Virus record (IMG/VR): IMGVR_UViG_3300045996_002303
Location: 1 to 60,958 of that record
Length of the DNA stretch: 60,958 bases
Reading direction: 5' to 3' (one strand)
DNA from: a virus
Taxonomy: Duplodnaviria; Caudoviricetes
The translations under genes were made by a program, and so were the position numbers. The notes below the pieces were generated by a model. It had not been told where the DNA came from. It did not search any database and worked only from the letters and a program-made list of their open reading frames with translations. Shown here one piece after another: positions 15,520-35,011 of the stretch (position 1 is the first letter of the stretch; every line of letters starts with the position of its first letter).

Positions 15520-15744
15520 TTATATTTTCACACAAATAGATGCTGGGTACGGCGCTGCCTGGCTGTGTTTCTTTGGGTCATCGTCGCCTATCGGAAATTC
15601 GATCAGTAAATAACCATCTTCCAATATTTCAGAAACAACGCCTTCGTTATTTGGTTTCGCTCCCGGAGGCGCAAACTGTTGTAGCATCAATAGTCCTTGA
15701 TCCAATACGCGAACTTTGTCGCCTACTTGTAAGTTGTTTTGCAT
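15520..15744 (-). CDS. Hypothetical SH3/KOW-like small protein
   Basis: LQVGDKVRV...GVVSEI. Confidence 0.55.
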   Translation of the reverse strand: MQNNLQVGDKVRVLDQGLLMLQQFAPPGAKPNNEGVVSEILEDGYLLIEFPIGDDDPKKHSQAAPYPASICVKI

Positions 15745-31904: not shown

Positions 31905-32025
31905 ACGTTAGGGTTTTAAGAGTTTTCTACTTTTGATAATTGTGACCACTACGCTGATCAGGGCGATTATGGCCAGTCCAACTGACGACCAGAATATTAG
32001 TTCCATTGGGTGAGGATTATTTCAG

Positions 32026-32097
32026 AGCCTCGTGGGTTACTCGAAAACCCTTATCCGGTTTACAAGACCGGTGAATCACCGTCAATTCTTACGAGGC
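32026..32097 (-). tRNA. tRNA-Thr(UGU), non-canonical
   Basis: Acceptor GCCTCGT/ACGAGGC, D stem GAAT/ATTC, anticodon stem CCGGT/ACCGG with loop CTTGTAA, T-arm GGGTT-TTCGAGT-AACCC. Confidence 0.75.
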
Positions 32098-32487: not shown

Positions 32488-32793
32488 CTAATATTTTAAA
32501 TGAGGCGCAAGAGCCGCCATTATGGTCTGGTTTACGTGCTGATTGTTCAGCAAGGGCGTTGCATTGGCAATCGCTGCGCTCTCCACTTCCTTGTTAAACT
32601 CCACCCACTTACCAGCGCAGGCGATCATGCCTAACAGGTACATTGGGCCGGAAACATCTGCCGCAGCGACTACATGCCCGTTATCTGTGATCCCCGCCTT
32701 ATATGTCACATCAACGTACTGCGCTTCACTCCATCTGAAATTGTACAGTGACGGGTCAACGTGGAGCTTGAAAGTGTTGGTAACGGTTTTCAT
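32488..32793 (-). CDS. Hypothetical protein
   Basis: Coupled ORF. Confidence 0.55.
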   Translation of the reverse strand: MKTVTNTFKLHVDPSLYNFRWSEAQYVDVTYKAGITDNGHVVAAADVSGPMYLLGMIACAGKWVEFNKEVESAAIANATPLLNNQHVNQTIMAALAPHLKY

Positions 32794-33062
32794 GGCTGAG
32801 GGGTTGAAAGGTGAGCCAATAAAGCATCGGCAAGCTTTACTGCATTTTCTGCAACACTATCGGCGATTTCACCATCTGCCATCCATGTGCCATTTGCATC
32901 AGTAGCAGAGCATAAACCTTGTAAGGCCATAGCAGCGAAGTACTCCCGTTTACTCAGGCCCGTGAACGAGCAGCCGTTATCATGCGATGAAAGCGTTGTA
33001 TAAATACCTGCCTCATTTGCCGTTACAGGCAGAGGAAACGCCGGTGTGTTCTTGTTTTCCAT
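32790..33062 (-). CDS. Conserved small phage protein
   Basis: PAFP...GLSKREYFAAMALQGL...AVKLADALL. Confidence 0.75.
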   Translation of the reverse strand: MENKNTPAFPLPVTANEAGIYTTLSSHDNGCSFTGLSKREYFAAMALQGLCSATDANGTWMADGEIADSVAENAVKLADALLAHLSTPQP

Positions 33063-33246
33063 GACTATTTTTATTAAACTGTTTAAAATATTCGCTCTCC
33101 GCCTCCTCCCTGCTCATCCCCTCGTCAATTGCCTTGTGGTAGCTTTCTATCGCACTGTCCTCTATCGCCTGGCGACTACCGCGACGGATCTGTTTTAGGC
33201 GGTGGTAGTCGGTGAGCTGGTCGGGGTGGTCGATGGCGGGGGTCAT
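33013..33246 (-). CDS. Hypothetical protein
   Basis: Early-operon ORF. Confidence 0.5.
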   Translation of the reverse strand: MTPAIDHPDQLTDYHRLKQIRRGSRQAIEDSAIESYHKAIDEGMSREEAESEYFKQFNKNSHGKQEHTGVSSACNGK

Positions 33247-33276
33247 AAAAGTTCAATTTCTGAATGAATAAAAATT

Positions 33277-33356
33277 AACTTAACTAAACAGAACTAAACA
33301 GAACTCCGCTTCACGTCACGCAACTGAACACCAGTTCACAGCACGCCACTCCACGC
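33277..33356 (-). repeat. Pentamer-periodic array 1 (16 units, GTK+NN on minus strand), candidate guide ncRNA
   Basis: Plus strand: aactt aacta aacag aacta aacag aactc cgctt cacgt cacgc aactg aacac cagtt cacag cacgc cactc cacgc; C at position 3 in 15 of 16 units. Confidence 0.85.
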
Positions 33357-33359
33357 TAA

Positions 33360-33920
33360 TTATTTCAAATCGATTAATTCAAACCTTCCGAAGCTCCCGT
33401 TGTTGGTTGGTCTATATGAACCGATACCTACATAGTTACCTGTAGTTGTTACCAACTCGGTTATTGTTTCTTTGGTAATTGTTTTTTCGCCAATTTCCAG
33501 GGTAAAAGCTGCCTGCCATTCAGTCCATTTGGGTCGAACAGTAATTACCCTTGCTTTTACGTTTCGATTAACAGCAGACCTTTTATCAATTACATCATAC
33601 TCCGGTAAAAGAATTTCATCTGGTGTTACCATGAACATGGCTGCAATTATGCTTTTCATGCTCTTAGTTTTAGTGCCAACTTTAGATTTAAGGTAGCCGC
33701 CCCCATTGATTAATGCCATTCGTAATTGATCTGCCGGTATATAACATTTACCGTCGCTGTTTCGGTAGCAATGGTATTCGGCGCGTACAGCATCTTCGTG
33801 GCTCACCTCTGGTCGTTCAATAATGTGCTTTCTGTTTTTCTCCCATTGTTCTAACTTCTGATCATCCATTCGATGTTGCATGTAGGGAGTTAATCCTTTA
33901 ATTGTTACTTGATATTTCAT
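33360..33920 (-). CDS. Solo Cas7/RAMP-like protein (186 aa; true start ATG 33920)
   Basis: RAMP-like YQVTIKGLTPYMQH strand, YIPADQLRMAL (cf. IPGSSLKGAL), C-terminal Gly-rich loop GIGSYRPTNNGSFGRFEL. Confidence 0.75.
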   Translation of the reverse strand: MKYQVTIKGLTPYMQHRMDDQKLEQWEKNRKHIIERPEVSHEDAVRAEYHCYRNSDGKCYIPADQLRMALINGGGYLKSKVGTKTKSMKSIIAAMFMVTPDEILLPEYDVIDKRSAVNRNVKARVITVRPKWTEWQAAFTLEIGEKTITKETITELVTTTGNYVGIGSYRPTNNGSFGRFELIDLK

Positions 33921-33927
33921 ATAAAAA

Positions 33928-33997
33928 AACTTTACTTTGCTAAACGCCACGCGACCTAACAGAACGGAACTACACGGTACCGGACTCTACTTCGCAT
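33928..33997 (-). repeat. Pentamer-periodic array 2 (14 units, GYN+NN on minus strand), candidate guide ncRNA
   Basis: Plus strand: aactt tactt tgcta aacgc cacgc gacct aacag aacgg aacta cacgg taccg gactc tactt cgcat; C at position 3 in 14 of 14 units. Confidence 0.85.
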
Positions 33998-34096
33998 TAA
34001 AATATTATTTCAATAAACTCATTATTCTTGTGCATGCTTTTGCTGCTTGATCGGCACTTAAAGGCACGGATACATGGTCTTTCATTATTATCTGGG

Positions 34097-34303
34097 TTAT
34101 TGGTTTGTCACAGGGGAATCAATTCTAATCTTGATGCTGTCATTGGTGATAACAAGGCCCGTAATCCTTTCACCCTTACCAATCCTGCACTCTTTCCCTA
34201 GTAAGAACCTCAGGGTTTCGTAGTTAATGTTCATAAACGAGCCGGTTGTATCAACCTCAGAATCTTTTAGACCATCGAACGGGATGGTTATTTTGTCACT
34301 CAT
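34097..34303 (-). CDS. Hypothetical protein
   Basis: Early-operon ORF. Confidence 0.55.
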   Translation of the reverse strand: MSDKITIPFDGLKDSEVDTTGSFMNINYETLRFLLGKECRIGKGERITGLVITNDSIKIRIDSPVTNQ

Positions 34304-34396
34304 TACTGACAGATATAATTGATGAAATAAATAGCGCCGATGATCAATGCGCCGAGTAAAACAGGGTAGAGTTTTTTCATGATATCTATTTAAGGG

Positions 34397-34636
34397 TTAA
34401 GAAACTTTTTTAATAAACTGTTCGGGTATACTTTCTAACTTGTAGAGGTAACCGCCGCCGGGACTTTCTTTATACTCAATGATCTTCTGCTCCCTCGCCG
34501 CCTGCAGCTTCCTTTTATTCCAGCCTGTCACCTCCATGATCCACACGTGGGTTACCCAGGTGGATTTCTCTGGCACCTTCTTCAGGCTCTGTACTTCACG
34601 AAGAAGGCGGTCAATCTTCTTTTCGATGTCAGACAT
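34397..34636 (-). CDS. Putative excisionase-like DNA-binding protein
   Basis: Small wHTH-like pattern (WV..IMEVTGW..KLQAAR..YLYKL), second gene of the early operon. Confidence 0.5.
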   Translation of the reverse strand: MSDIEKKIDRLLREVQSLKKVPEKSTWVTHVWIMEVTGWNKRKLQAAREQKIIEYKESPGGGYLYKLESIPEQFIKKVS

Positions 34637-34698
34637 AAAATATTGTTAAGTGATGGGGTGAGGGTTGTGCGGGTGAAACTTTTCTGTTTGCTTTGCGA

Positions 34699-34914
34699 CT
34701 ACTTTGCTGCAGCAGTTAATGCAGCCCTTATCTTCTCTACCGTGCCAGGTGATGCCGAACCGATCAGTAACACACGATTCAGCACCAGCCTGTCAATGCC
34801 GATAGATACAGCACATTCCACTTCCGTGTCAAACCCTTTGCGATATTGCTTAAGCGCCTTTCTTTCTTCTGCTGTCAGCTTTTCGCTTTTCCTGCTAGTT
34901 GTATAAGTGCTCAT
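34699..34914 (-). CDS. Cro-like HTH regulator
   Basis: 71 aa HTH (ECAVSIGIDRLVLNRVL), divergent from the repressor. Confidence 0.65.
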   Translation of the reverse strand: MSTYTTSRKSEKLTAEERKALKQYRKGFDTEVECAVSIGIDRLVLNRVLLIGSASPGTVEKIRAALTAAAK

Positions 34915-34919
34915 AATTT

Positions 34920-34978
34920 GTTTTACATTTGTTTTGCATCACAAGTCAAATGTAAAACCGTTTGGAACTTTATCCAAA
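34920..34978. promoter_or_regulatory. Lysis/lysogeny switch: two opposed Bacteroidota -7 boxes (TACATTTG) and a putative operator
   Basis: 12-bp inverted repeat GTTTTACATTTG (34920-34931)/CAAATGTAAAAC (34947-34958); minus-strand TTTG 20 nt upstream of the leftward -7 box; palindrome TTTGGA-N6-TCCAAA at 34961-34978. Confidence 0.6.
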
Positions 34979-35011
34979 TTTATCTTAGCATTTTGTCGAA
35001 ATATTGAATTT

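Follow-up and report, generated by a model that had tools for sequence, protein, structure and literature searches.

The window analysed here is a stretch of 60,958 nucleotides that makes up a whole 61-kb virus record, and it carries portal, large terminase, primase/helicase and integrase genes. A compact module of one gene and two tracts of pentamer repeats, all read from the minus strand, lies some 3.5 kb away from the integrase. The gene (33360..33920, minus), which we call vipr, encodes a Cas7-like RAMP protein of 186 aa plus the stop codon, and its reading frame is intact from ATG 33920 to the stop codon at 33362..33360. The upstream tract (33927..33996, minus) comprises 14 pentamers, and the downstream tract (33276..33355, minus), called array 1 in an earlier note on this DNA, comprises 16. 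An Rfam search of positions 32500..35000 at E ≤ 1 returned no family, CRISPR repeat families included, and no cas-like Pfam or PHROG match was found among the neighbouring ORFs. The interval 32790..33246 (minus), just downstream of array 1, holds a pair of ORFs (77 and 90 aa) in different reading frames with a 50-nt overlap, and the second matches the C-terminal half of phrog_2201 (E 1.9e-14); they could represent one frameshifted gene or an unrecognised accessory gene. A tRNA-Thr (TGT) gene is located at 32025..32097 (minus), approximately 1.2 kb downstream of the module.

Read from 33996 to 33927 on the minus strand, the upstream tract is a series of 14 units of the form x-G-Y-N-N. Our direct count placed a G in all 14 units, at every fifth nucleotide from 33995 to 33930, followed by T in 12 units and by C in the other two. 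This agrees exactly with the earlier note, which had read 33997..33921 as 14 units followed by TTTTTAT and by an ATG at 33920. The end of this T tract, TTTTAT (33921..33926, minus), abuts the start codon, and a T-rich 3' flank was also seen in relatives. The upstream array is the longest run of G with a period of 5 in the window (14 units), the maximum on the plus strand being 7. It lies far above the runs simulated: in 200 Markov-1 simulations of the window, with either strand counted, the longest run ranged from 6 to 11 (7 in 100 simulations, 8 in 61, 6 in 21, 9 in 15, 10 in 2 and 11 in 1), and the expected number of period-5 G runs of at least 14 under an iid model was 1.1e-4. When the whole 60,958-base window was scanned for uninterrupted GY pentamers, the caller returned the two arrays flanking vipr and one 6-unit run on the plus strand at 15542, which is at chance level.

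Searches with the vipr product identified its closest characterised counterpart as the protein Vipr of Escherichia phage SUSP1. In PHROGs it belonged to phrog_4652 (E 3.5e-22), a family to which no function is assigned, and the single sequence matched the PDB entry 36pp, 'SUSP1 Vipr protein', with E 6.2e-7. The A1 profile, built from 29 family members, matched the same entry over its full length (E 1.9e-15; residues 4-183 against 5-188). An AlphaFold2 model of the product had a mean pLDDT of 78.3 and a pTM of 0.74, and its best Foldseek matches in the PDB were Csm3, type VII Cas7, Cmr4 and Cas7-11 (E 5e-6 to ~1e-4; TM ~0.5) in a fold library that extends to 8 April 2026 and holds no Vipr structure. 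The Vipr profile match and the Csm3/Cas7 fold matches together justify the label 'Cas7-like' that had been given to the gene earlier, and by sequence homology we regard its product as a Vipr homologue, a small stand-alone RAMP. A Pfam search of the product and a tblastn search of the GenBank phage collection gave no match.

The ORF list places the start of this gene at a GTG at 33950, inside the upstream array, which the earlier note had suspected to be wrong. The 17 full-length proteins of A1, among them the query, all begin at the methionine corresponding to ATG 33920 or one residue ahead of it, and the alignment with SUSP1 Vipr starts at residue 4-5; because these two lines of evidence agree on 33920, the GTG start is a mis-call, and the suspicion was well founded. 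The idea that the upstream tract partly encodes an N-terminal extension translated from GTG 33950 draws on the open frame from that position and on a few database homologues, among the matches listed, that are annotated as approximately 10-30 residues longer. However, the A1 starts speak against such an extension, most of the 120 matches listed from our homologue search (813 at E ≤ 0.001) are 186-191 aa long, and in relatives the sequence ahead of the ATG shows no conservation at the protein level and frequently consists of an array. We consider an extension of this kind extremely improbable.

VIPR was first described in 2026 preprints as a CRISPR-related DNA silencer (PMC13142463; 10.64898/2026.04.26.720920). 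A VIPR system combines a stand-alone phage RAMP protein, Vipr, with vrRNAs in which 9-16 YNNGG pentamers are followed by a 3' tail, and the loci 'typically' carry an accessory (vap) gene (10.64898/2026.04.26.720920). In SUSP1, one vrRNA lies upstream and three lie downstream of the genes, and the upstream one is a discrete transcript of ~100 nt (10.64898/2026.04.26.720920). DNA targets are read through the NN bases with a 1-nt skip, a gapped code; the transcription of competing phages and satellites is silenced, and for its own systems the preprint reports that no self-target was found (10.64898/2026.04.26.720920). Seven types are distinguished, with 'GGY/NN motifs, or a related consensus', and the Methods name NNNGG, YNNNG and NNNNG as alternative repeats (10.64898/2026.04.26.720920). 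In the structure, each repeat is occupied by one Vipr protomer; H17 and D177 recognise G1, R138 and W178 recognise G2, and a purine-excluding pocket that includes R179 accommodates Y3 (10.64898/2026.04.26.720927). A language-model survey adds non-canonical motifs such as WGT/NN beside Vipr-like folds, and 'TGH/NN' clusters too (10.64898/2026.10.21.760802). The available text of the discovery preprint (10.64898/2026.04.26.720920) and of the survey (10.64898/2026.10.21.760802) gives no loci, targets or reading rule for the YNNNG and WGT/NN classes.

We compared the window with 14 related loci from IMG/VR (45-71% identity) and with three loci on genome contigs, which are binned with Cyclobacteriaceae, Draconibacterium and a Pacearchaeota MAG, giving 18 sources in all. 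With the window a virus record and 14 of the relatives from IMG/VR, the module agrees with VIPR systems in general, most of which are encoded by viruses or proviruses. Pentamer arrays were found beside vipr in 18 of 18 sources, and 59 of the 60 uninterrupted runs of at least 8 GY pentamers lay on the vipr strand. This strict strand bias bears on the question of whether the tract acts as DNA, through phased protein-binding sites or bent DNA, and not as RNA. A period of 5 bp does correspond to half a helical turn; however, a DNA-level role is hard to reconcile with the bias seen over the 18 sources, and the partner gene is homologous to an RNA-binding RAMP whose relatives bind such RNAs, according to the available preprint text (10.64898/2026.04.26.720920; 10.64898/2026.04.26.720927). 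A tract that works as DNA is thus very unlikely.

The grammar of the repeats was derived from 705 units in the first 15 sources, that is, the set without the three genome contigs. G was present in 97% of the units, and the next base was T in 89% and C in 11%. The other three positions carried 0.10-0.18 bit, the base before G accounting for 0.18 bit; it was A or T in 74% of the units, compared with a background of 61%. The fixed part therefore comprises only G (97%) and the pyrimidine that follows, and not the canonical GGY/NN consensus. Judged by sequence, this pattern of G, pyrimidine and three free bases is that of the published YNNNG class, and the match places the locus inside the VIPR family as its authors define it. 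In all pairs of arrays from different loci, identical variable triplets came three in a row only three times, once between the upstream array and locus L011; the content of the arrays is, by this comparison, hypervariable across loci. When the two arrays of the window were compared with each other, their variable strings also proved unlike, as the earlier note had stated. The position that follows GT (or CT, GC) is restricted to G or T throughout the 16 units of the downstream array; the upstream array uses all four bases there.

The residues of the protein fit such a repeat. The G-loop GIGS[YF]RP is invariant in A1, as are the equivalents of SUSP1 R138 and R179 (R129 and R170), and the position of W178 is occupied by Y or F. 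Where SUSP1 has the G1 contact D177, the A1 proteins have a serine throughout (S168), and H16, the equivalent of the G1 contact H17, is kept in at least 90% of the 29 sequences. This set of residues is consistent with a repeat that keeps G2 and Y3 and has G1 freed; since H16 is retained, the residue argument for the loss of G1 reading is incomplete. Within 3 kb of vipr, and leaving aside vipr itself and antisense ORFs over it, each ORF family occurred in at most 3 of the 18 sources, so this branch has no conserved vap gene.

Several relatives showed features of their own. Very long arrays of 70-75 units in one register, broken only by TTTT units, were present at L010:2583-2947 and L014:3573-4012, and they recall the arrays that the discovery preprint calls 'staggered'. 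At L013:2953-3546, on a 142-kb viral contig, the vipr homologue contains an in-frame stop that divides it into a 107-aa and a 73-aa piece. The gene is perhaps a pseudogene, or the stop a sequencing error; short arrays are still present there. Neither L001 nor L002 has an upstream array; vipr is instead immediately preceded, at L001:400-507 and L002:2890-3000, by a conserved ~100-nt element common to the two, which contains several inverted repeats and had no Rfam match. An Rfam search of the 17 relative loci returned only a tmRNA and two tRNAs, none of them within arrays; the tmRNA gene (L008:4114-4517; 90.8 bits) is full-length and lies ~560 nt downstream of vipr on a 121-kb viral contig.

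The downstream array starts 4 nt past the vipr stop codon and has G in 15 of its 16 x-G-Y-N-N units, one unit having C in place of G. It ends in AAGTT and a T tract, AATTTTTAT; the ATTTTTAT tract after the array occupies 33268..33275 (minus). The earlier note had pointed out that both arrays end in AAGTT and a U tract, and this resemblance is real and extends to the family: of 58 arrays called in the 18 sources, 24 end in AGTT, 30 have at least 5 T in the next 8 nt and 19 have both, and the commonest terminal 9-mer, AGTATAGTT, was found 12 times. No significant fold was predicted for either array region when the RNA was compared with shuffles (z = -0.03 and -0.36), so that no pseudoknot tail of the SUSP1 type is predicted for this phage. 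Hairpin tails follow the arrays in some relatives. In the Draconibacterium-binned locus L016 (3640-3700 and 3761-3830), each array is followed by a conserved tail in which GGTTCGATTCC stands between complementary arms, similar to a tRNA T-arm.

At their 5' sides the two arrays share a box. The 10-mer TTGAAATAAT occurs exactly twice in the 60,958-base window, both times on the minus strand and just 5' of an array: the first G of the upstream array comes 8 nt after the first copy (34004..34013), and that of the downstream array 4 nt after the second (33359..33368), which overlaps the vipr stop codon. By eye, A/T-rich boxes resembling it precede arrays in several relatives. Since a scan for sigma-70 promoters and terminators gave no more sites than in shuffles, we treat the TTGAAATAAT box as a candidate vrRNA promoter element, similar to an extended -10 sequence.

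The gapped target search proposed in the earlier note was run, and it yielded no target for either array under the models tried. Perfect 8-unit matches for all arrays, sought in the window and the loci under 12 models, numbered one, which is at chance level. The full 14-unit pattern read with skip 1 and up to 3 mismatches had 0 matches in the phage window, so no self-target was found under this model, matching what the available text of the preprint reports for its own systems (10.64898/2026.04.26.720920). Under the gapped code with a 1-nt skip, the first 10 units of the upstream array had 0 exact matches in viral contigs and 0 in metagenome contigs, and those of the downstream array had 0 in viral contigs; the G-rich 10-unit pattern of the latter had 7 matches in metagenome contigs. 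Beyond the ten units, these seven agree at just 1-5 of 12 additional positions (chance expectation, 3), and the contigs that carry them are unrelated and have a GC content of 0.35-0.73; given the short extension and the unrelated contigs, we read them as chance. A mismatch-tolerant local scan with 55 arrays and 9 models gave the same scores as shuffled guides (for skip 1, 0.764 versus 0.763), and its only perfect matches were two identical arrays matching each other. In the GY-NNN class, three bases rather than two may be read by each protomer.

These searches could be taken to mean that the upstream array is a decaying or decoy copy from which no working guide is made, and the two units of 14 with GC instead of GT might point in the same direction. 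However, the G is intact in every unit, and a C in place of T after the G is usual in the family, where 11% of the 705 units have it. The 5' box and the 3' end are common to both arrays, and the vipr reading frame is intact. We therefore regard decay as improbable.

The close spacing of the upstream array and vipr raises the question of whether the array also serves as a leader. The 6 nt between the last unit and ATG 33920 (TTTTAT) are too few to hold a promoter of its own for vipr; the array is therefore probably part of the vipr transcript, or else vipr is expressed by read-through from it. The vipr mRNA would then, as the earlier note proposed, have the array as its 5' leader, in addition to the guide role, and a Vipr filament assembled over the 14 units would end 6 nt from the AUG, block ribosome entry and shut off vipr translation, so that Vipr synthesis would be tuned to free guide RNA. 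The analogy behind this idea is TRAP, the trp RNA-binding attenuation protein, a multi-subunit protein that reads (G/U)AG triplets approximately 5 nt apart in the Bacillus trp leader and regulates the gene that follows. The likeness consists of a multi-subunit protein on a repeated triplet with ~5-nt spacing in a 5' leader; the protein fold of TRAP is unrelated to that of Vipr, and the triplet it reads is (G/U)AG.

Evidence from the relatives bears on leader control in both directions. No terminator hairpin was predicted between the array and the gene in the window, and several downstream tails in relatives also abut an ATG. With the strict caller, an array lies within 200 nt of the vipr start in 7 of the 18 sources, so that arrays directly upstream of vipr recur. 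However, 11 of the 18 have no upstream array by the same caller (3 of these 11, L006, L015 and L009, have weaker arrays with a lenient caller), and the gaps outside the window, where it is 6 nt, are 16, 17, 27, 28, 30 and 38 nt; a close leader array is thus not a conserved design. Moreover, the upstream vrRNA of SUSP1 is a discrete transcript of ~100 nt (10.64898/2026.04.26.720920), and autoregulation is not discussed in the available text of two of the VIPR preprints. Taken together, a shared transcript whose translation is shut off by the filament is conceivable, but we think it unlikely. If it were true, a built-in feedback would match the supply of Vipr to that of guide RNA, and this would be a cis-regulatory use of guide RNA that has not been described for VIPR or CRISPR. 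This possibility is the only new element at this locus.

Our preferred interpretation, to which we assign a probability of roughly 85%, is that the upstream array is one of the two vrRNA guide genes of a minimal VIPR system in a temperate tailed phage, and that its filament would pair with the DNA of a competing mobile element and silence its transcription. It is built on the array statistics and the homology to Vipr, and on the co-occurrence, co-orientation and hypervariability of the arrays in relatives. Transcription of the vrRNA would probably start just downstream of the TTGAAATAAT box, and the upstream vrRNA would be a run of 14 pentamers with one Vipr protomer on each. Vipr would hold the fixed G and the pyrimidine, the presumed counterparts of G2 and Y3 in the GGY motif of the preprints, and would leave the variable bases exposed. 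From the VIPR preprints we infer for the system in the window that a helical filament assembles, that its variable bases pair with the double-stranded DNA of a competing mobile element and that transcription is thereby silenced. The branch belongs to the published 'YNNNG' class, whose repeats leave the first of the two G positions in GGY free. The earlier note had only hinted at a trans-acting, DNA-targeting guide role; its view of the array as a periodic RNA onto which the Cas7-like protein loads is in line with the structural preprint, which shows one protomer per repeat (10.64898/2026.04.26.720927).

The module can be compared with the Cas7 backbone of class 1 CRISPR systems and with the VIPR systems published so far. 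With Csm3 and Cmr4 it shares an RRM/RAMP fold with a thumb and a G-loop and, by analogy, one protomer per RNA period in a filament on the guide. It differs from class 1 systems in its period of 5 nt instead of 6, in that each guide is a stand-alone gene and in the absence of CRISPR repeats, cas1/cas2 and other cas genes from the locus. Among VIPR systems, the type II system of SUSP1 (Vipr, vrRNA and vap1; PDB 36pp), as described in the available preprint text, is the reference. It differs from the module in the fixed part of the repeat, which is GGY in SUSP1 and G-Y (xGY) in the window, and in the end of the RNA, a pseudoknot tail in SUSP1, whereas none is predicted in the window and a conserved WAGTAWAGTT end with a U tract is found instead. 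The window also has no conserved vap neighbour, has one downstream vrRNA where SUSP1 has three, and has GSYRP in the G-loop compared with GDWRP in SUSP1. The likeness lies in a small stand-alone RAMP (186 aa in the window, 202 aa in SUSP1) that is phage-borne and homologous over its full length, and in pentamer-repeat RNAs on the strand of the gene (14 and 16 units in the window), one upstream and the rest downstream, with hypervariable content and no self-target found. Phased from the pyrimidine, the unit of the window reads Y-NNN-G, as in the YNNNG class named in the discovery preprint (10.64898/2026.04.26.720920), and the A or T that precedes G in 74% of the 705 units recalls the WGT/NN clusters of the survey (10.64898/2026.10.21.760802), both as far as the available text goes. 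On the sequence comparisons, the locus is most likely a real upstream vrRNA of an already published system, of which it is otherwise an ordinary member. It adds a compact example of VIPR from a temperate phage, in which a single protein is accompanied by two guides and by no helper gene. In each repeat of this branch, the G and a pyrimidine alone are fixed, and the very short distance between the guide and the start codon makes the locus convenient for testing whether a guide controls the expression of vipr.
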